Position numbers and translations under genes: made by a program. Shown here piece by piece: positions 1 through 10,574 of a DNA stretch of 10,574 bases (position 1 is its first letter; each line of letters begins with the position of its first letter). Below the pieces are notes generated by a model. That model ran no database searches. It was not told the DNA's origin and saw nothing but the letters and a program-made list of their open reading frames with translations. The DNA comes from a virus (taxonomy: Duplodnaviria; Heunggongvirae; Uroviricota; Caudoviricetes), in the IMG/VR virus record IMGVR_UViG_2703718859_000027. The stretch is one strand, 5' to 3'.

Positions 1-798
1 TTAATGAACATTCGTCGCCGAAAACGAGTCTGTATCATTAGTGCGATGCAGTCTCTGCAAAGGATCTTGTTGATAAAATTGGCAGAAACGTTGCCACAAT
101 GAAGGGAAACGAGGAGCAAAAAGTTCTGGGGCGCTAAAGAAATATTCAGAAAGTACGGCAAAACATTCAGCAGGATCACTGGCAGCATAAGCATCAATGC
201 TCGCCGCATTCTCGCCAACTAATTCGATTTCTTCCTGAATGTTGTTCATTGCAGCATGAAGATCGTGTTCCCAGCCAGCAACCTCACGCAACGGAATAAA
301 GGGAACTCCGCTGGCGCGATCGCCGTTACGGGTGTCCAGCTTATGAGCGACTTCATGAATAATCAGGTTAAAACCAGAAGCATCAAAAGAATCTTGTATA
401 TCCAACCAGTTCAAAACGATAGGCCCTTGCTGCCAGCTCTGACCTGACTGAACAATACGTTGGTTATGCACCAGACCGATATCGTCTTCCCATTCATCAT
501 CGACCACAAATGGCGCAGGATAAATTAAGACTTCATGAAAACCATCCAGCCATTCCAGTCCTAACTCCAGAACGGGTAGGCAAAATAGAAGTGCTATCCG
601 GCAGCTTCTTAATGAATCCAGTTCAAAGCCCTGTAAAGGAACAAGCCGCTTTTGCTGTAAAAAACGTTCGGCAAGAGTGACTAATTTGCTTTGTTCCTGT
701 TCCGTCAGACACGTTAAAAGGGGGATCGATAGTGCTTCCTGCCAGGGAAGGGCAGTTTGATGTGCTGATTCTTGTACTTTCCAGGGCCACTTAATCAT
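1..798 (-). CDS. mtfA: MtfA (Mlc titration factor A / YeeI), zinc-peptidase-like host gene flanking the prophage
   Basis: Minus-strand ORF whose translation from the ATG at 798..796 begins [23 protein letters not shown], which I recognise as E. coli MtfA (265 aa). It contains an HExxH motif ([10 protein letters not shown]). The track ORF runs to 837, but that is an in-frame upstream extension with no start codon. Stop TAA at 3..1. Confidence 0.93.
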
Positions 799-891
799 CG
801 TTTTGCTCGCAAACTCGTCACTTGAACAAAATTGCACGGACAGGGACTGTTAAAATGCCAAATTTCCTGGCATCATGGCAACCATCTGAAC

Positions 892-981
892 GGAGAGATG
901 CCGGAGCGGCTGAACGGACCGGTCTCGAAAACCGGAGTGGGGGCAACTCCACCGGGGGTTCAAATCCCCCTCTCTCCGCCA
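892..981 (+). tRNA. serU: tRNA-Ser (anticodon CGA), class II tRNA with long variable arm; prophage attachment target
   Basis: 90 nt starting GGAGAGATGCCGGAGCGGCTGAACGG and ending CTCTCTCCGCCA. Acceptor stem GGAGAGA/TCTCTCC, anticodon stem CCGGT/ACCGG with loop CTCGAAA (anticodon CGA), long variable arm, T-arm GGGGG-TTCAAAT-CCCCC, discriminator G plus encoded CCA. Matches my memory of E. coli serU, which lies next to mtfA. Confidence 0.93.
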
Positions 982-1027: not shown

Positions 1028-1059
1028 TTGGAATTACTTGGAATATTTTGTTGGAATAT
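1028..1059. repeat. Three direct copies of (C/G)TTGGAAT(A/T)T at the 3' end of int; candidate arm-type Int binding sites
   Basis: cTTGGAATta (1028-1037), cTTGGAATAT (1038-1047), gTTGGAATAT (1050-1059), about 50-80 bp from the tRNA 3' end. Function is inferred only. Confidence 0.35.
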
Positions 1060-2059
1060 TCTGGGGTAATGGTACATCCAGTGTGGGTGAGATCTTTACT
1101 TTTCTATCATAGATTAGCACCTGTCCTTCGGTCTTGTGACCAGAGAAAAGTTGCTTATCCCGGCTACTACCTTCGTAATCTGATATCCCCTTGGCTTTAA
1201 GGTCATGGAATGTAAAATCCGTCGCGATCCCTGATATTTGTCCAGCCAAATTTCTTGCCTCAACCCACATTTCATTAAATCCTTTATACATGTAACGGTT
1301 GCCGTACTGATTGCTGATTACATAGGCTGACTTGGGTAGCTGTTTAGCTTTTTCTATAACTGATTGCAGACGGGGAGTCCAGGCTTTTATCTGTTTCTTT
1401 CCTGTTTTACCTTGCTGGATAAAGATCCCGTCGTTTCCGATCTGTTCCCATTTCAGAGACAACACATCGGAAATCCTTGCTGCGCACAGGTATGCAATTT
1501 CCATTGCGATAAAAACAGGCACAGGAGCCACGCTTAATACGGCCTGGTATTCTTTGTCAGTCACATAGCGCTCTCGGTTTTTGGCCTTGAATTTACTTAC
1601 ACCGGTACAAGGATTAGCCTTTACATACCCTCGTTCATACCCCCAACTGTAAACGCGTGACATGCTGCTTTTTTCATGGTTTGCCTGCGTTTTACTCTGC
1701 TCGCCCCTTTTGTCCATGTATCGTCTGATGTGCTCTGGTTTTACAGAATCGGCCAGCACCTTACCAAATACGGCCAGCAGCTTTTTTTGATGTTGCAGAT
1801 AATCTTTTTGCGTTCTGGGACTAAGATCGCTGTAATAGGCGCTGGCGAGAAATTTTTCCCACAAACGCCCAAATGTCATTGCCCGATCGCGATGGTTAAT
1901 TGTTTCTTCGTACTTTTTCCATAATGCGGCTAAACCATCCTCGATTGCAGTTAAGGTTACAGATTCTCTGGATGTCGGTTTCCATACATAACTATATTTA
2001 TTGGGGTATACCTTTGGCGGTAATTTTTCGTGTTCGGGATTTTTCCTTCGTCTTCCCAT
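1034..2059 (-). CDS. Phage integrase, tyrosine recombinase (lambda Int family)
   Basis: 341-aa ORF; N-terminus MGRRRKNPEHEKLPPKVYPNKYSY resembles lambda Int (MGRRRSHERRDLPPNLY). C-terminal catalytic region FHDLKAKGISD ... GHKTEGQVLIYDRK contains the H-x-x-R-like and HK...Y tyrosine-recombinase signature. ATG at 2059..2057, stop at 1036..1034. Confidence 0.93.
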   Translation of the reverse strand: MGRRRKNPEHEKLPPKVYPNKYSYVWKPTSRESVTLTAIEDGLAALWKKYEETINHRDRAMTFGRLWEKFLASAYYSDLSPRTQKDYLQHQKKLLAVFGKVLADSVKPEHIRRYMDKRGEQSKTQANHEKSSMSRVYSWGYERGYVKANPCTGVSKFKAKNRERYVTDKEYQAVLSVAPVPVFIAMEIAYLCAARISDVLSLKWEQIGNDGIFIQQGKTGKKQIKAWTPRLQSVIEKAKQLPKSAYVISNQYGNRYMYKGFNEMWVEARNLAGQISGIATDFTFHDLKAKGISDYEGSSRDKQLFSGHKTEGQVLIYDRKVKISPTLDVPLPQNIPTKYSK

Positions 2060-4851: not shown

Positions 4852-5040
4852 TTATCCAGCCGGTGTTTCGTTATTCAGGTACAGCGATACTTTTTTTAAC
4901 GGGAGGCATTCACCAGAAATTTTTTGCTCGTCTCTTGCCTGGAGGCAGGATTCTTTACTGGCATAAATTCCGGTAATCACATTCTGTGATTCACCCGTTA
5001 TAAGAAAAACCGTCATCACCAGTGCAAATGCTGAAGTCAT
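4852..5040 (-). CDS. Small secreted/membrane protein, YdfD-like (Qin prophage lysis-protein family) candidate
   Basis: 62-aa ORF with hydrophobic N-terminus MTSAFALVMTVFLITG (signal-peptide-like). Its ATG (5040..5038) overlaps the dicB stop (ATGA), as for ydfD downstream of dicB in Qin. Family assignment is from memory of YdfD, not alignment. Confidence 0.6.
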   Translation of the reverse strand: MTSAFALVMTVFLITGESQNVITGIYASKESCLQARDEQKISGECLPLKKVSLYLNNETPAG

Positions 5041-5225
5041 TGACGTTCTCCGAAAATACCAAGTTCAAGAAGGGCAATTCTGGAGAGTATGGAATTATCA
5101 TTGAGAAGATAAGGCTCATATTTTCTCATCTTAATGGCATCTTCAGTAAACTCCCGGTTACTGAGCAGAACACCAATATCAAAACACCCTTCAGACGTAT
5201 TAACGTTTGGTAATAACGTTTCCAT
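5037..5225 (-). CDS. dicB: DicB-like cell-division inhibitor (MinC-dependent FtsZ-ring inhibitor of Qin/Kim prophage type)
   Basis: 62-aa ORF METLLPNVNTSEGCFDIGVLLSNREFTEDAIKMRK; N-terminal half closely matches E. coli K-12 DicB (MKTLLPNVNTSEGCFEIGV...FTEDAINKRK, from memory). GAGGA Shine-Dalgarno upstream. Confidence 0.85.
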   Translation of the reverse strand: METLLPNVNTSEGCFDIGVLLSNREFTEDAIKMRKYEPYLLNDNSILSRIALLELGIFGERQ

Positions 5226-5235
5226 TATCGCGTCC

Positions 5236-5793
5236 TCAACAATGAATTTTTAGTAATTGCTCCACAGTCATATTTTTAATTGCGCTCCGGTTTACAAGAG
5301 TCCAGCCTTGTTTCTCCAGATAAAACTGGAAGGTATCCAGGGTGCAGACCATTGCACCATCAGGAACGGTTTCAGTGAATTTGATATTGCCGTGTTCGTC
5401 GAGACGGATAACCAGGGTACGTCCGTCCCCGTGAATCATTTTGTCGGGAGACGGGGCGTTATTCTGGCGCAGTTCTTTCTCCATGCGATCGAACTCAGCG
5501 ATGTAGGCTTCTTTAAATGCAGCGGCTTTTTTGCCGGTGAAGCCCATCACCAGGAAAACGAAGCCGTTTTTGGTGATTTGGTACATAGGGAGTTTGCGCC
5601 CGGTTGAGTCGGTATATTCACTGGGCGAAAAATTTCGCTCAGTGAATTCTGCTGAACAGTCTAGACGTGAAATTTTTGCCAGTACATCTTTGTGTGGTTT
5701 CCGGAAATACTCGGCAACAGCTAAAGAGGATGTAACAGCACGCCCATTGGCGATAGTAATTTCAGGGTGAGAAAGGGCAGGGATAGTAGCCAT
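5236..5793 (-). CDS. Rha-family phage regulatory protein (N-terminal pRha domain plus about 85-aa C-terminal domain)
   Basis: Segment ITIANGRAVTSSLAVAEYFRKPHKDVLAKI...KLPMYQITKNGFVFLVMGFTGKKAAAFKEAYIAEFDRME matches the Rha/pRha domain (memory of PF09669). Start chosen at ATG 5793..5791 (MATIPALSHPE...) because a perfect GGAGG lies 8 nt upstream (5806..5802). The track ORF extends in frame to an ATG at 6087, so a 283-aa alternative exists. Confidence 0.8.
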   Translation of the reverse strand: MATIPALSHPEITIANGRAVTSSLAVAEYFRKPHKDVLAKISRLDCSAEFTERNFSPSEYTDSTGRKLPMYQITKNGFVFLVMGFTGKKAAAFKEAYIAEFDRMEKELRQNNAPSPDKMIHGDGRTLVIRLDEHGNIKFTETVPDGAMVCTLDTFQFYLEKQGWTLVNRSAIKNMTVEQLLKIHC

Positions 5794-5957
5794 GATGGCA
5801 GCCTCCATGATGAATTTCATTAACTCACCACCGGAGGTAGCAATCTCATGGGTGGTGAGACGCACAGGGTTGCTACAACCGGTCATCATGGAACCCGGCC
5901 AGCCTTGCGGCTGCCCTGCACGCCCCACCATAATCTGAATGTGGCTGTGCATTACGC

Positions 5958-5982
5958 ATAAAAAAACCGCCTGAGCGCGGTT
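5958..5982 (-). terminator. Candidate rho-independent terminator (minus strand)
   Basis: Minus-strand RNA reads AACCGC-GCUCAG-GCGGUU followed by UUUUUAU. It lies inside the in-frame upstream extension of the Rha ORF and downstream of dicF. Confidence 0.45.
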
Positions 5983-6202
5983 ATGCGCCATGATGAACAT
6001 CGGGGTAGCAATCCCGGCACCCGCTTTATGAGGTGCAGGTGCACTATAATTCCACCCGTTCTGGTTTTCAATAGCTACATTCAACATTTTCTCTTACCTT
6101 TCATCACCGAAGTGAACTTTGTCGATGCAGTGCCTGGTGCCTCCAGGTGACGTTAACCAGTTAACAATTAACGCCGGAATACAGAAGTATGCCCGTTACG
6201 CC

Positions 6203-6227
6203 CCGTAAAAGACCACTTTACGGTTTT
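6203..6227 (+). terminator. Terminator-like hairpin plus T-run on the plus strand
   Basis: CCGTAAA-agaccac-TTTACGG followed by TTTT on the plus strand (7-bp stem). No plus-strand gene is upstream, so its role is unclear. Confidence 0.3.
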
Positions 6228-6278
6228 AACTGTTCCGCGTGCGCTTAGCCGCATTCACCGCATCACAAAATTCACTTT

Positions 6279-6331
6279 AAAAAGGGTGGCAGAGCAGTCA
6301 CGGAGTAGAACTGATGCCACCAAAGACTACA
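6279..6331 (-). ncRNA. dicF: DicF-like sRNA (ftsZ-targeting antisense sRNA of Qin-type prophages); 5' seed differs from K-12 DicF
   Basis: Minus-strand sequence CUUUGGUGGCAUCAGUUCUACUCCGUGACUGCUCUGCCACCCUUUUU matches the 3' two-thirds of K-12 DicF (…GUUUGGCGGUAUCAGUUUUACUCCGUGACUGCUCUGCCGCCC, from memory), including the terminal hairpin GGUGGCA…UGCCACC plus U-run. Sits upstream of dicB as in Qin. The 5' boundary is approximate. Confidence 0.8.
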
Positions 6332-6799
6332 CATGGGTATTGTGGCGGGGCTGTCACTTAAGCGTATGGTCAACCTGACAACCCGGTGCATTTTCTGGAG
6401 CAATGGAGGAAACCCCAGCCATACTTACCGCCGCGCCATTTCGCGGATTGCCACAACCGGAAGCGCACGGTCGAAGAAATCTAACGACAAGCCTTCTAAG
6501 GGAAAGAGCTTCGCCGTACGCTTTCGCGTTGTGTGCCTGCTTTTAACCACGTCAGGCGAGGTGGTTTCCGTCGTTCCCCAACGACAGGAAATCTGTATAA
6601 TCTGGATATCCCCAACAACAGGAAGGTGTTTTATATGGTGGTTCAAAAGAATTGTTCAGGTACTGGTAAGCCTGCGGACAGGGCGGACATTCCGAATACC
6701 AGGAAACATATACCTGAGAAAAACATACGACCAAAACCATCTCCAGCTCCTTCAGAGGAGAGGGGGAACAGCAACAATCAAGCAAGCAGGTGATGATAT

Positions 6800-7246
6800 A
6801 TGGACCGGGATGATATTCTTGACAGGGTTTTATATGGCTATTTTCTTGAACAACTATTCTCTGTAGCGACTGGTCGTCTCGATAAACTTCTCTCAGTGGT
6901 GAGTATTATCCTCGGTTCATCTGTCATTGGTGGATTTATTCCTGAAGTTTCTGGAGTTCTCATTGTTGTGATAGCAACCGTTCAAACGATTTACGGATTC
7001 GGACAAAAGTCAGGTAACGCAATGAGAAAATCCGCAGAATATCTGCAGCTTTATGATGATGCAGAAAAATATTCCGATTCGGAATTGAAAATTCAGTTAA
7101 AGCTTCTGGAAAAAACAGATGATAATATTTGGTCGTCGCTTAAAGATATCGCAATCTTAAAAACCCGGATCAAAATAGGAATCTCCGTAGAACAACAAGA
7201 GAAACTGTCTGCAAAATCCAAATTGATGCGATTCCTTTGTGGTTAG
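6800..7246 (+). CDS. Small two-transmembrane-helix membrane protein of unknown function; candidate superinfection-exclusion / abortive-infection effector (SieB-like position, SLATT-like architecture)
   Basis: 148-aa ORF in an AT-rich segment, with AGGTGA Shine-Dalgarno 6 nt before the ATG at 6800. Two hydrophobic helices (LLSVVSIILGSSVIGGF and GVLIVVIATVQTIYGF) followed by a charged helical tail. Transcribed opposite to the surrounding early-left operon. Confidence 0.7.
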   Translation: MDRDDILDRVLYGYFLEQLFSVATGRLDKLLSVVSIILGSSVIGGFIPEVSGVLIVVIATVQTIYGFGQKSGNAMRKSAEYLQLYDDAEKYSDSELKIQLKLLEKTDDNIWSSLKDIAILKTRIKIGISVEQQEKLSAKSKLMRFLCG

Positions 7247-7344
7247 GAATACCCAGATTGTTAAAGATCATGCCGGATGCTTACCCGTGTCCGGCGAACG
7301 TATTCCACTTCGCCTGTGGAGAACTCTTTAATTACTAACCTTCA

Positions 7345-7497
7345 TCAGTCAGAGTTTCTTGCTAACCAGCGACGCGCGCCAGCTGCGGTTTTAAACGTTT
7401 TGCTTCTGGTATACGTCATCGCGGTAAACGTGCCGTCCTGGTTGGGAAACACGCCGCATACCAGAGATTCGTTGTTGCCAAGATTGAGCGTATCCAT
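7345..7497 (-). CDS. Small early-operon protein (50 aa), possibly YdfB-like (Qin prophage small protein)
   Basis: ATG at 7497..7495 with GAGG 5 nt upstream. Translation MDTLNLGNNESLVCGVFPNQDGTFTAMTYTRSKTFKTAAGARRWLARNSD, stop TGA at 7347..7345. Below the 60-aa cutoff of the supplied track. First gene downstream of the PL-like promoter; the family call is from uncertain memory. Confidence 0.5.
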   Translation of the reverse strand: MDTLNLGNNESLVCGVFPNQDGTFTAMTYTRSKTFKTAAGARRWLARNSD

Positions 7498-7675: not shown

Positions 7676-7705
7676 AATCTACAATTAAAAACTGTTTTGT
7701 GTCAA
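7676..7705 (-). promoter_or_regulatory. Candidate sigma70 early-left (PL-like / P-dicB-like) promoter: -35 TTGACA, 18-bp spacer, -10 TAGATT
   Basis: On the minus strand TTGACA (7705..7700) and TAGATT (7681..7676); both lie within or abut the 41-bp palindromic operator, the geometry expected for repressor control. Confidence 0.5.
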
Positions 7706-7720
7706 CAGTTTTTAATTGTA
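7680..7720. promoter_or_regulatory. Perfect 41-bp palindrome (17-bp arms TACAATTAAAAACTGTT, 7-bp spacer); candidate repressor operator (OL / Ob-like)
   Basis: Arms 7680-7696 and 7704-7720 are exact reverse complements. The half-site ACAAT(T/A)AAAAACTGT recurs in the repressor/cro intergenic region (8715-8753). Confidence 0.6.
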
Positions 7721-7729
7721 CCCTTAAGC

Positions 7730-7752
7730 AAAAAAATCCCTCGAAAGAGGGA
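7730..7752 (-). terminator. Rho-independent terminator ending the repressor-antitoxin-toxin operon
   Basis: Minus-strand RNA reads UCCCUC-UUUC-GAGGGA followed by UUUUUUU, 19 nt downstream of the ParE-like stop codon. Confidence 0.6.
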
Positions 7753-7770: not shown

Positions 7771-8058
7771 TCAGATAGAGAAGGGAAATTGTCGGCGAGC
7801 ATGTGTCACGCTTACAATCTCAATGCTTGAAGCAGCTACTCTGTACAGGATTATGTAGTTAGGGTGGGTCACTATCTCTCTCAACCCAGAAACCCGTTCG
7901 CTTGGTGGATATAGGTACGGATGCTCAGATAGAGGTAATACCGATGTTTCAATACGTATTTTAAGTCTACGCGCTGCCGGTGGGTTCTCCTTGGCGATGT
8001 AAGTTATGATCTGACGCAAATCATCGCGAGCAGATGGTAGCCATAAAATGGGCAACAT
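7771..8058 (-). CDS. parE: ParE/RelE-superfamily toxin (ParE2-like) of a three-component prophage toxin-antitoxin module
   Basis: 95-aa ORF MLPILWLPSARDDLRQIITYIAKENPPAARRL...YIILYRVAASSIEIVSVTHARR with the ParE/RelE pattern. Its start overlaps the antitoxin stop (ATGA at 8058). Confidence 0.88.
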   Translation of the reverse strand: MLPILWLPSARDDLRQIITYIAKENPPAARRLKIRIETSVLPLSEHPYLYPPSERVSGLREIVTHPNYIILYRVAASSIEIVSVTHARRQFPFSI

Positions 8059-8249
8059 TACTCGCTCCTGTTAGTTACAGCAATTTGAGCAATAAGATTT
8101 TCCATTTCAGCTATTACCTCGTCATGTGGAATTGCGGGGCGAGGGTCTGCAAGGCTTGACGCTACTTTAGCGCGCAACCATTCGTTGTAACTGTTTTCTT
8201 GTTCGATAGTTTCGAATTCTGAAACTATCGGAGAAAGGGCTGTACTCAT
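8058..8249 (-). CDS. paaA2: PaaA2-like antitoxin (small, intrinsically disordered ParE antitoxin)
   Basis: 63-aa ORF MSTALSPIVSEFETIEQENSYNEWLRAKVASSLADPRPAIPHDEV..., matching my memory of E. coli O157 PaaA2. Immediately upstream of and coupled to the ParE-like gene. Confidence 0.82.
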   Translation of the reverse strand: MSTALSPIVSEFETIEQENSYNEWLRAKVASSLADPRPAIPHDEVIAEMENLIAQIAVTNRSE

Positions 8250-8276
8250 GGCATAACTCCTCTTCTTGTACTGTGG

Positions 8277-8678
8277 TCACGCCCGGCGGCTTTTTTGTGC
8301 CGCCAGCCACCGGGCAATGGTTTCTTCCATTGATTTTTTTTTGTCTTTGATTTCTTGAAGCATTTTTTCTTGGTCCTCCTCAGGGAACGCACTAAAAGCC
8401 TGGAGTAATTCGCGTTGGCGAGGACCAATTTTCATCGTGTTAGGGGTGAACATTTGCTCCCCCTCTTCAGGAGGCAATAAAAACCAATGCAACGGATGCC
8501 CTGTAACCTCAACCAGTTTATCCAAACTTGAGGCTTTAGGTGTAGCCTTACCGCTGACCCATTGTTGAACAGTTTGTTGTGTCACACCAATTCTACGGGC
8601 CAGCTCAGCCTGGCTCCATCCAGTTTCCTGAAGAAGCTTGCTGATTCTGTACATCGATACTTCTAGGGCGCTCATCAT
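8277..8678 (-). CDS. paaR2: CI-like prophage repressor, HTH XRE family (PaaR2/RacR-like), no S24 peptidase domain
   Basis: 133-aa ORF with helix-turn-helix LLQETGWSQAELARRIGVTQQTVQQWVSG. Divergent from the cro-like ydaS and heads the antitoxin-toxin operon. Start is ambiguous between the ATG at 8678 (possibly leaderless; TAAAAT lies 7-12 nt upstream) and 8654. Confidence 0.85.
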   Translation of the reverse strand: MMSALEVSMYRISKLLQETGWSQAELARRIGVTQQTVQQWVSGKATPKASSLDKLVEVTGHPLHWFLLPPEEGEQMFTPNTMKIGPRQRELLQAFSAFPEEDQEKMLQEIKDKKKSMEETIARWLAAQKSRRA

Positions 8679-8714
8679 TATTCAATTTTACAGGTAAATA
8701 CTGTTAAAAGCATC

Positions 8715-8753
8715 ACAATAAAAAACTGTTGATCGCGTACAGTTTTTTATTGT
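8715..8753. promoter_or_regulatory. OR-like operator palindrome (ACAATAAAAAACTGT - 9 bp - ACAGTTTTTTATTGT) in the divergent repressor / cro-like intergenic region
   Basis: 15-bp arms 8715-8729 and 8739-8753 are exact reverse complements, and the half-site is nearly identical to the 7680-7720 palindrome. A second, weaker dyad TTTTACAG-N7-CTGTTAAAA is at 8690-8710. TATAGT (8764-8769) is a candidate -10 for ydaS. Confidence 0.6.
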
Positions 8754-8786
8754 AGCCTTTGCCTATAGTTTTTAGAGGAGGGCAAA

Positions 8787-9059
8787 ATGCTAGATAGCAC
8801 TCGCAAAAAAATTAGGCAGAAATACACTCAGGCTGAAATAGGTCGTTATATGGGGGTCGCTCAACAGACAGTTTGGCAATGGTTTAGCTTTGGCGTTCCC
8901 CCAAAGCAGGTAATTCCGCTATGTCAGCTAATGAAGTGGGAGGTTACCCCGCATGAAATTCGCCCAGACATTTACCCTAATCCGACCGACGGTTTACCTG
9001 TCGAGTGTCAGGCTAACACACAACCAGAGACGGGGGTGATTCATGAAAATCAAGCATGA
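8787..9059 (+). CDS. ydaS: YdaS-family Cro-like HTH regulator
   Basis: 90-aa ORF with GAGGAGGG Shine-Dalgarno upstream. HTH YTQAEIGRYMGVAQQTVWQW and the C-terminal motif EVTPHEIRPDIYP are typical of YdaS/Cro-like proteins (memory of Rac YdaS). Divergent from the repressor. Confidence 0.82.
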   Translation: MLDSTRKKIRQKYTQAEIGRYMGVAQQTVWQWFSFGVPPKQVIPLCQLMKWEVTPHEIRPDIYPNPTDGLPVECQANTQPETGVIHENQA

Positions 9060-9468
9060 ACACATCCGTATGGCGATGAATGCCTGGGCATATCCTGATG
9101 GTGAGAAAGTTCCCGCAGCTGAAATAGCCCGGACTTATTTCGAGCTGGGGATGACGTTCCCGGAACTGTACGACGACAGCCATCCGGAAGCCCTGGCTCG
9201 TAATACCCAGAAAATTTTCCGCTGGGTGGAGAAGGACACGTCTGATGCTGTTGAAAAAATTCAGGCGCTGTTACCGGCGATCGAAAAGGCGATGCCGCCT
9301 TTGCTGGTGGCCCGTATGCGCAGTCACAGTTCTGAATATTACCGGGAGATCGTCGAACGACGGGATCGGCTGGTGAAAGATGTGGATGATTTTGTCGCTG
9401 TAGCGATCGCCTGGGGCACCCTGACTAACAGTGGTGGTCAGCCTGGTAATGCTGTTGTTGTGCATTGA
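9043..9468 (+). CDS. ydaT: YdaT-family protein (CII-like regulator of Rac/CP-933P-type immunity regions)
   Basis: 141-aa ORF beginning MKIKHEHI (as Rac YdaT, from memory) and ending ...VVVH. Overlaps the ydaS 3' end by 17 nt, with GGGGGTGA Shine-Dalgarno. Confidence 0.82.
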   Translation: MKIKHEHIRMAMNAWAYPDGEKVPAAEIARTYFELGMTFPELYDDSHPEALARNTQKIFRWVEKDTSDAVEKIQALLPAIEKAMPPLLVARMRSHSSEYYREIVERRDRLVKDVDDFVAVAIAWGTLTNSGGQPGNAVVVH

Positions 9469-9536
9469 CCAACAATATTTATACCGGATTTCTTCCGGAA
9501 GTTCGTGGGTAAAGTTCGGTATCAGAAGAGGTGAGT

Positions 9537-10574
9537 ATGGCTAATGCCTGGCTCAGATTGTGGCATGACATGCCAAATGACCCCAAGTGGCGAACGATTG
9601 CCAGGGTATCAGGACAGCCAATCGCAACAGTGATGGCAGTGTATATCCACCTTCTGGTGAGCGCGTCACGAAATGTCACGACATGTCACGGCGTGTCACT
9701 ACGTGGTCACATTGATGTCACGACGGAAGATTTAGCAAGTGCGCTTGATGTGACGGAAGACGTAATTGATTCAATTTTGCATGCAATGCAGGGGCGGGTT
9801 TTGGATGGTGACCTTATTTCCGGATGGGAAAAACGTCAGGTGCTGAAAGAGGACAATGGTAACGTTTCGCAAACGGCAAAATCCCCGGCAGAGCGCAAGA
9901 GAGCGCAGCGGGAGCGCGAAAAGCTGCGGAAATATGATGCTGATTGTCACGATGAGTCACGACGTGTCACGCATCTGTCACGACAAGTCACGACAGATAA
10001 AGATACAGATACAGAATTAAACCCCACACATAACGCGCGCATGCGCGAGAGTGCTCCAACCGGTGAGTCGAATGGTGCGTCGTTGCAGACAGCCGAACCT
10101 GAATACCTGGACGGCCTGAGCGAACCGATCGGGAAATTTTCGATGACCACTGTCTGGCAGCCGTCGCCGGATTTTCGACAACGGGCAGCAGTGTGGGGTA
10201 TGGCTCTGCCTGAGCCGGAATTTACACCTGCAGAGCTTGCCGCATTCCGGGATTACTGGATGGCGGAGGGGAAGGTTTTCACGCAGGTTCAGTGGGAGCA
10301 GAAATTTGCCCGCCACGTGCAGCACGTCAGGGCACAGGTAAAACCAGTCAGCAAGGGGGTAAGCCATGCAGCATCAGGTGGCACGGCATCACGGGCAATT
10401 CAGGAAATCCGGGCAGCACGCGAACAGTGGGAACGAGACAACGGATTTATCAGCAACGGAAACGGCCTGGAAGCTGTGGGAGCTTATGGGGGAGGTGTAT
10501 TCGAACCGCTGGACTCAGAAGAACGGGGCCGCACCTTCGAAGCTCTGGATTGCCCAGATTGGTGCGATGACTGA
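9537..10574 (+). CDS. Phage replication initiation protein with DnaT-like C-terminal domain; contains the origin iterons
   Basis: ATG at 9537 with GAGGTGA 2 nt upstream; the track ORF begins at GTG 9531. C-terminal region GKFSMTTVWQPSPDFRQRAAVWGMALPEPEFTPAELAAFRDYWMAEGKVFTQVQWEQKFARHVQ resembles E. coli DnaT (…[26 protein letters not shown]…[23 protein letters not shown], from memory). Stop TGA at 10572-10574. Confidence 0.82.
   Translation: MANAWLRLWHDMPNDPKWRTIARVSGQPIATVMAVYIHLLVSASRNVTTCHGVSLRGHIDVTTEDLASALDVTEDVIDSILHAMQGRVLDGDLISGWEKRQVLKEDNGNVSQTAKSPAERKRAQREREKLRKYDADCHDESRRVTHLSRQVTTDKDTDTELNPTHNARMRESAPTGESNGASLQTAEPEYLDGLSEPIGKFSMTTVWQPSPDFRQRAAVWGMALPEPEFTPAELAAFRDYWMAEGKVFTQVQWEQKFARHVQHVRAQVKPVSKGVSHAASGGTASRAIQEIRAAREQWERDNGFISNGNGLEAVGAYGGGVFEPLDSEERGRTFEALDCPDWCDD
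9665..9724. repeat. Iteron cluster 1: six GTCACG(A/G)-type repeats at about 10-bp periodicity inside the replication gene
   Basis: GTCAC(G) copies start at 9665, 9675, 9685, 9695, 9706 and 9717. Confidence 0.7.
9946..10021. repeat. Iteron cluster 2 (five GTCACGAC-type repeats) followed by an AT-rich tract; candidate replication origin
   Basis: Copies start at 9946, 9956, 9966, 9977 and 9987 (10-11 bp spacing), followed by GATAAAGATACAGATACAGAATTAAA (9995-10021). This mirrors lambda ori inside gene O. Confidence 0.7.

Follow-up and report, generated by a model that had tools for sequence, protein, structure and literature searches.

A probable immunity region built on a three-component operon

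The 10,574-nucleotide stretch of Caudoviricetes DNA recorded in IMG/VR as IMGVR_UViG_2703718859_000027 (here called the window, always at its full length) very probably contains the immunity region of a lambdoid, Qin/DicA-like Escherichia coli prophage that carries a CP-933M-type three-component toxin-antitoxin (TA) operon, paaR-paaA-parE. A switch in which a repressor-PaaA-ParE operon stands opposite YdaS and YdaT is a real arrangement and one already published, and the copy in the window is, as judged by sequence comparison, a near-identical version of the system in the O157:H7 prophage CP-933M. This reading is carried by the identities of the genes, their order and coupling, the terminator behind them, a set of repeated and conserved operators, and near-identity to a published functional system. 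The initial annotation had named five open reading frames (ORFs) here, for a repressor, a PaaA2-like antitoxin, a ParE-like toxin, YdaS, and YdaT, and all five are present where it placed them, each with a significant family match. Its span of positions 7771 to 9468 takes in these ORFs but leaves out the terminator and the OL/PL-like region (7676-7752), which are part of the same unit.

The paaR-type repressor gene (133 amino acids [aa] encoded at 8277-8678, minus strand) has Pfam matches to HTH_3 (E 2e-13) and Phage_CI_repr (E 9.5e-6). Its product combines an N-terminal helix-turn-helix (HTH) with a conserved C-terminal domain and is a CI analogue resembling DicA; residues 11 to 130 align with the NCBIfam model of the DicA subfamily at 52.8 bits, under the model's cut-off of 101. 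The Peptidase_S24 domain is not found among 19 Pfam matches, which sets it apart from the self-cleaving lambda CI/LexA type, and RecA-stimulated autocleavage is therefore not expected as an induction route. With a C-terminal domain like those of PaaR2 and DicA and no S24 domain, the protein would thus act like CI while standing outside the CI/LexA family. A search of solved structures with PaaR returned only generic matches to the 434-repressor HTH. The repressor is 97% identical to the copy in a prophage of strain EDL933 that lies beside yccA and 37% identical to PaaR2, with the C-terminal 98 aa reaching 42% identity to PaaR2 (E 7e-21).

Downstream lie paaA (63 aa, 8058-8249, minus strand) and parE (95 aa, 7771-8058, minus strand). 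PF21217, the PaaA2 family, is the sole domain of PaaA (E 6.6e-21; PDB PaaA2 structure 3zbe, E 1.4e-23); the protein has no DNA-binding domain, and its gene is directly upstream of the toxin gene. PaaA is 89% identical to the CP-933M-type copy (seven substitutions) and 68% identical to PaaA2, from which its C-terminal third diverges. ParE matches PF05016 (E 2.6e-17) and the ParE2 structure 5cw7_B (E 1.1e-36), differs from the CP-933M-type copy by one substitution (99% identity), and is 68% identical to ParE2.

The layout of these three genes fits a single transcription unit. The gap between paaR and paaA is 27 nt, with GAGGAG 7 nt upstream of the paaA ATG; AGGAG precedes the parE start; and our consensus scan called no minus-strand promoter-like site within the three genes and neither such a site nor a terminator-like one between them. 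The ATGA coupling of paaA and parE that had been claimed has to be corrected, as the junction reads TAATG (GAG TAATG on the minus strand) and the genes share the single base 8058. An intrinsic terminator (7727-7752, minus strand), expected from the initial annotation at 7730-7752, was borne out: it starts 18 bases past the parE stop and consists of a six-pair stem with four G-C pairs (7752-7737) followed by TTTTTTT, with a fold of -9.6 kcal/mol (z = -2.9) matched by 1 of 200 shuffles and a stem kept in five relatives. We infer from this layout that paaR, paaA, and parE are transcribed together on one mRNA, and for co-transcription as for toxicity the argument leans on near-identity to the published system. 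An antisense promoter-like site within parE (7789-7818, plus strand) and an antisense terminator-like hairpin with a T-run within the repressor gene (8315-8332, plus strand) are probably chance occurrences, as counts of such sites are no higher than in shuffled sequence.

On the opposite strand, ydaS (8787-9059, plus strand) encodes a 90-aa Cro analogue with matches to PF15943 (E 7.4e-10) and phrog_35 (E 5e-27); it is 89% identical to the CP-933M-type protein and 24% identical to YdaS of CP-933P, and a search of solved structures gave no match. The gene ydaT (9043-9468, plus strand) encodes a 141-aa CII analogue that matches PF06254 (E 3.3e-10), the CP-933P YdaT structure 8bt1 (E 1.2e-76), and phrog_163 (E 2.4e-45), a family labeled "CII-like transcriptional activator." A predicted YdaT operator, OM (GTGATTCATGAAAATCAA, 9036-9053, no strand assigned), spans the ydaT start codon. 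It begins 7 nt upstream of the ATG, exactly as in both the EDL933 copy beside yccA and the CP-933P-type copy. The published YdaT site is TTGATT-N6-AATCAA, located at the end of ydaS (PMC9986795), and the site in the window departs from it by one mismatch, a G in place of T at the first base, whereas the two O157:H7-type copies are exact at the same position.

Relationship to the CP-933M and CP-933P systems

Two paaR-paaA-parE systems in O157:H7 were reportedly named by Hallez in 2010. In the passage where it cites Hallez 2010, PMC4803016 describes two paralogous systems whose antitoxins lack cross-neutralization and reports specific neutralization, and according to PMC8630535, CP-933M, in the same strain, carries a homologue of paaR2-paaA2-parE2. 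O157:H7 genomes carry two paaA-parE copies, the better of which has 96.2% DNA identity to the pair in the window. In EDL933, this better copy belongs to the prophage beside yccA (locus L002), with protein identities of 97, 89, 99, and 89% for the repressor, PaaA, ParE, and YdaS. Taken together, these identities, the CP-933M homologue, and the existence of two paralogues indicate that the window holds the CP-933M-type ("1") system and not the "2" system.

The CP-933M system (paaR1-paaA1-parE1 type; Sp4 in Sakai) has a gene order identical to that in the window, and its OR and OL operators, terminator, and YdaT site are the same except for a few spacer substitutions. The differences lie in the seven PaaA substitutions, in the first base of the YdaT site (G in the window, T in CP-933M), and in the surroundings: CP-933M lies beside yccA and the window element at tRNA-Ser(cga) beside mtfA, and the rightward replication genes (DnaT-domain protein and P) are not the same.

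The initial annotation had likened the locus to paaR2-paaA2-parE2 of CP-933P. This was right as to the kind of system but not as to its closest relative. The alignment to PaaR2, PaaA2, and ParE2 that it proposed gives 37, 68, and 68% protein identity, whereas the CP-933M paralogue is far closer at 97, 89, and 99%. The CP-933P-type copy used for comparison (L003) has a repressor that starts MQKKE, the determined N terminus of PaaR2, and its ParE and PaaA show no mismatch to the aligned stretches of the ParE2 and PaaA2 structures; its identities to the window are 37, 68, 68, and 24% for the repressor, PaaA, ParE, and YdaS. As closest relative, paaR2-paaA2-parE2 was ruled out: besides the 37% identity, the window repressor has a different N terminus (MMSALE), and the operators and YdaS are unrelated.

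The two types nevertheless share their architecture and presumably their logic: genes for a CI-like repressor, an antitoxin, and a toxin form a leftward operon, genes of the Cro and CII kind diverge from it, and past the toxin gene lies an OL/PL-like site. They also share the spacing of the repressor promoter's -10 from the ATG, the YdaT site, the repressor C-terminal domain, and a ydaT that is 84% identical in DNA. They differ in the repressor HTH, which is unrelated, in YdaS (24%), in PaaA and ParE (68% only), and in the operators, CP-933P having four 18-bp palindromes with half-site GTTTAGTAA where the window has ACART-N5-AYTGT three times.

When the window is aligned with the CP-933P type at the nucleotide level, these differences resolve into segments. 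Identity is 59% in parE, 85% in the 5' half of paaA, 64% in the region encoding the repressor C-terminal domain, and 84% in ydaT, whereas the repressor HTH region (35%), the intergenic operator region (45%), and ydaS (38%) are at background level. The divergent block covers about 600 bp (approximately 8420-9020), its left edge coinciding with the repressor domain boundary and its right edge with the YdaT site. As read from the alignment, this is a heteroimmune cassette swap of the classic lambdoid kind, in which repressor HTH, operators, and ydaS have been exchanged and the TA pair, repressor C-terminal domain, and ydaT kept.

Among complete E. coli genomes, 484 of 5,426 (~9%) contain the 2-kb module near full length, and 815 contain the paaA-parE pair. 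E. coli 2012EL-2448 (L001) has a 2-kb block 100% identical to the one here. Coverage of the window by complete genomes in the collection does not exceed 88%. No deposited phage genome among 50,697 records has this CP-933M-type allele. Only one of these records, Escherichia phage Evi (LR597642.1, 3416-4276), has such a ParE; its repressor and PaaA are of the CP-933P type, and its ParE ORF is unannotated in the record. The module is thus found as well in a genome that was submitted as that of a phage.

Operators, promoters, and the predicted switch

A 15-bp element, ACART-N5-AYTGT, has three copies in the divergent intergenic region and two immediately beyond the terminator, beside a PL-like promoter. 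In the 108-bp region between the repressor gene and ydaS (8679-8786), the predicted operators, like those at OL given no strand, are an OR3-like copy (ACAGGTAAATACTGT, 8690-8704) with one mismatch, lying over the repressor promoter core and invariant in the five relatives; an OR2-like copy (ACAATAAAAAACTGT, 8715-8729), whose center is 44 nt upstream of the repressor ATG; and an OR1-like copy (ACAGTTTTTTATTGT, 8739-8753) between the -35 and -10 of the rightward promoter. The center-to-center spacings are 25 and 24 bp, and the three sites overlap the candidate PRM and PR elements. Both predicted OL copies, at 7681-7695 (ACAATTAAAAACTGT) and 7705-7719 (ACAGTTTTTAATTGT), match the motif exactly, and the first makes up one arm of an inverted repeat that is perfect over 17 nt. 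The 10.6-kb window has six matches to the motif, five of them in these two regulatory regions; 1.3 matches would be expected by chance, and six were reached by 1 of 200 shuffles. The two regions are 78 to 80% alike, and each contains a large palindrome with perfectly complementary arms, of 15 nt at 8715-8753 and of 17 nt at 7680-7720. Among the five relatives (89 to 100% identity over the block), variation affects 1 of 75 operator columns, a position within the unspecified N5, compared with 52 of 199 flanking columns.

A strong promoter is the PL-like TTGACA-18-TAGATT (7676-7705, minus strand), which has 10 of 12 consensus matches, points leftward into DUF1391/ydfA, and has its -35 at the center of the OL palindrome. 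The PR-like promoter, TTGATC-18-TAGCCT (8729-8758, plus strand), has a weak -10 and falls under the threshold of the consensus scan, so that its assignment is by inference from the palindrome alignment with PL. A PRM-like -10, TAAAAT (8685-8690, minus strand), lies 6 nt ahead of the repressor ATG. PR and PRM were both placed by alignment with PL and with the CP-933P geometry, for which the hexamers were read from the L003 sequence; the CP-933P type has the identical arrangement of GATAAT, 6 nt, and ATG. No Shine-Dalgarno sequence precedes the repressor ATG, and the repressor mRNA may be leaderless. In CP-933P, 5' RACE put the start of paaR2 transcription at the ATG (PMC8630535), and the lambda repressor mRNA is likewise leaderless (PMC8630535).

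The CP-933P system has been dissected in detail (PMC8630535; Jurenas 2021) and provides the model to which the arrangement in the window, with a CI-like repressor, with PaaA and ParE where lambda has rexAB, and with a Cro-like YdaS and a CII-like YdaT facing them, conforms as the initial annotation had proposed. There, PaaR2, YdaS, and YdaT behave as CI, Cro, and CII. PaaR2, a CI-like repressor translated from a leaderless mRNA, and YdaS footprint overlapping operators within an intergenic stretch of 97 bp and repress three promoters, PRM, PR, and a distal PL, with PRM activated at low PaaR2 levels. YdaT switches on a PRE-like promoter where ydaS and ydaT meet. Reporters for PRM, PR, PL, and PRE formed part of that work. 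The locus shows bistability, and the whole block stabilizes a mini-F plasmid, i.e., it acts as an addiction module, a behavior shown for CP-933P only. Structures are available for YdaT (PMC9986795) and for PaaA2-ParE2 (5cw7, 5cze, and 3zbe).

From this paralogue and the sequence of the window, the following switch can be proposed. A leaderless transcript from the PRM-like promoter would supply PaaR, and with it PaaA and ParE, before ending at the terminator (7752-7727). PaaR would bind the ACART-N5-AYTGT operators, both the three in the divergent intergenic region and the two at OL, and thereby silence the rightward promoter of ydaS, ydaT, and the replication genes as well as the leftward PL-like promoter of a ydfA-DicF-Rha-dicB-exo-int operon. 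The OR2-like site, by its distance from the start, seems suited to activation of PRM, and the OR3-like site, over the promoter core, to its repression. YdaS would contest the same operators in the fashion of Cro, and YdaT, on its site at 9036-9053, would turn on a PRE-like leftward promoter. ParE would be neutralized through direct binding by PaaA; because an unstable antitoxin and a long-lived toxin would be carried on the repressor transcript, a cell that loses its immunity region or has it replaced may die, which is addiction.

The likeness to lambda is one of layout. In both, a non-essential pair expressed in the lysogen lies downstream of the repressor gene (cI-rexA-rexB in lambda) and ahead of OL/PL, and OR is tripartite, with center spacings of 24 and 23 bp in lambda and of 24 to 25 bp in the window. 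Lambda CI, Cro, CII, and RexAB showed no detectable sequence homology beyond the HTH, and the window differs in that its repressor is without the S24 autocleavage domain and the passengers are a type II TA pair instead of RexAB. The Qin (Kim) prophage, with DicA and DicC, shares other features: the full length of the repressor can be aligned with the DicA model, albeit at a score below its cut-off (52.8 versus 101 bits), and both have a leftward operon with ydfA (DUF1391), the DicF small RNA, and dicB, in that order in Qin. Qin is not known to carry a TA pair between dicA and ydfA.

Role of the toxin-antitoxin pair and prophage context

Several points weigh against this interpretation of the locus as a CP-933M-type immunity switch. 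Operator invariance is only modest evidence, because the regulatory regions are 90 to 97% conserved overall. The consensus scan called neither the PR-like nor the PRM-like promoter, whose -10 (TAGCCT) and -35 (ATGCTT), respectively, are weak. The experiments on regulation cover the CP-933P paralogue only, which has a repressor HTH, operators, and a YdaS of unrelated sequence (35 to 45% nucleotide identity). Finally, activity of the CP-933P ParE2 was detected in neither state of the switch (PMC8630535), which bears on any physiological role proposed for the toxin.

A different role for the pair, which we consider unlikely, is that PaaA-ParE serves mainly in abortive infection or superinfection exclusion against other phages, as a functional substitute for RexAB on the lysogen's repressor transcript and not as an addiction module. 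Defense against phages is known for other prophage type II TA systems. The position of the pair would also suit this role, since it lies where rexAB does: it follows the repressor gene on a shared transcript and precedes OL/PL (PMC8630535). However, no PADLOC model is matched by PaaA or ParE, nor by YdaS or YdaT, and the repressor has only generic HTH matches there. The published phenotype is post-segregational killing and plasmid stabilization, with no toxin activation in either switch state, and phage-defense data for the PaaR-PaaA-ParE family were not found in the literature examined.

We also think it improbable that the locus is an inert remnant in which the repressor merely autoregulates the TA operon and no longer governs a lysis-lysogeny switch. 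The best-studied relatives, CP-933P and CP-933M, are indeed cryptic prophages, and the missing S24 self-cleavage domain makes classic SOS induction by repressor cleavage unavailable. Yet all five ORFs are intact, and the operator motif recurs 1 kb away at the OL/PL-like site, where a simple TA autoregulator would not need it. Moreover, the prophage that contains the closest full-length relatives has integrase, replication, and antiterminator genes as well as stx2b, and the isolated phage Evi has a CP-933P-type module.

As to the toxin itself, the label "gyrase-type" given earlier holds for membership in the ParE family (PF05016, E 2.6e-17), and its gyrase part is an extrapolation at the level of the family only. 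For ParE2, overexpression induces the SOS response and the protein colocalizes with the nucleoid, which hints at topoisomerases, while its precise target remains to be found (PMC8630535). A RelE-like, ribosome-dependent mRNA interferase in place of a ParE-type toxin acting on DNA topology is very improbable: the NCBIfam model RelE_StbE scores 27.5 bits, just below its cut-off of 27.9, and RefSeq uses the generic name "RelE/ParE family toxin," but the Pfam ParE_toxin match is full length (E 2.6e-17) and the protein is 68% identical to ParE2, an SOS inducer colocalized with the nucleoid (PMC8630535).

The rest of the window shows the surroundings of the CP-933M-type immunity region. The left prophage end comprises an mtfA fragment (1-837, minus strand), tRNA-Ser(cga) (892-981, plus strand), and a tyrosine integrase gene (1034-2059, minus strand), so that integration is at tRNA-Ser beside mtfA, compared with yccA for CP-933M and potC for the CP-933P-type copy. 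Leftward of the PL-like promoter are DUF1391/ydfA (7345-7497) and dicB (5037-5225), both in the leftward operon, with the DicF small RNA between them (6284-6335, minus strand; 61.1 bits, Rfam); this is a Qin-like dicF-dicB cell division inhibition cassette. To the right of ydaT, a replication gene (9531-10574, plus strand) runs off the end of the window. Its product has a DnaT DNA-binding domain (PF17948, E 2.9e-17; NCBIfam DnaT at 94 bits, under the cut-off), and the gene holds the position of lambda O and differs from the gene found there in CP-933M.

Within the 5' part of a "Rha family" ORF (5236-6087, minus strand, 283 aa), Rfam models place a C4 antisense RNA (5848-5935, minus strand; 77.9 bits) and isrK (5960-6036, minus strand; 64.7 bits). 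This resembles c4-ant of the P1 immI region, and the true start of the Rha/antirepressor protein may be further downstream; an antirepressor could provide an induction route for a non-cleavable repressor. Between this ORF and ydfA (6088-7345), about 760 bp are missing from the closest full-length relative, that of 2012EL-2448, and this stretch is found at a coverage of at least 80% in only 72 complete E. coli genomes. It includes an ORF (6800-7246, plus strand, 148 aa) directed against the PL operon, whose sole match is phrog_6315 (unknown function), with none to Pfam, NCBIfam, or PADLOC; it may be a moron gene. The 2012EL-2448 element is an Stx2b-converting prophage, and further right it has a second, classical ParD-ParE/RelE pair (L001 features at 18794-19356 and 24046-25281).

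A more far-reaching reading, which we hold to be doubtful, is that the module belongs to an intact, inducible Stx-type prophage at tRNA-Ser/mtfA, and not to a dead one as in O157:H7; stx2b lies downstream in the closest full-length relatives. In such a prophage, a Rha/antirepressor encoded in the PL operon under C4/isrK control would inactivate the non-cleavable, DicA-like repressor, and ParE would either lock the immunity cassette in place against heteroimmune recombinants or exclude superinfecting phages. A literature search for Stx phages linked to ParE in the immunity region found no relevant paper. If this reading were true, the stability of a toxin-converting phage would hinge on a TA module.

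For the CP-933M-type immunity switch that we favor, the window adds little to the literature, as the three-component systems were named in 2010 and the wiring of repressor, TA pair, and YdaS-YdaT was dissected in 2021. The additions are modest and consist of predicted operators and promoters for the unstudied CP-933M-type allele and of the clean ~600-bp swap of the immunity block relative to the CP-933P allele. The pattern of that swap agrees with the suggestion that, in a lambdoid population where immunity regions recombine, the TA pair could penalize replacement of the region that carries it (PMC8630535).

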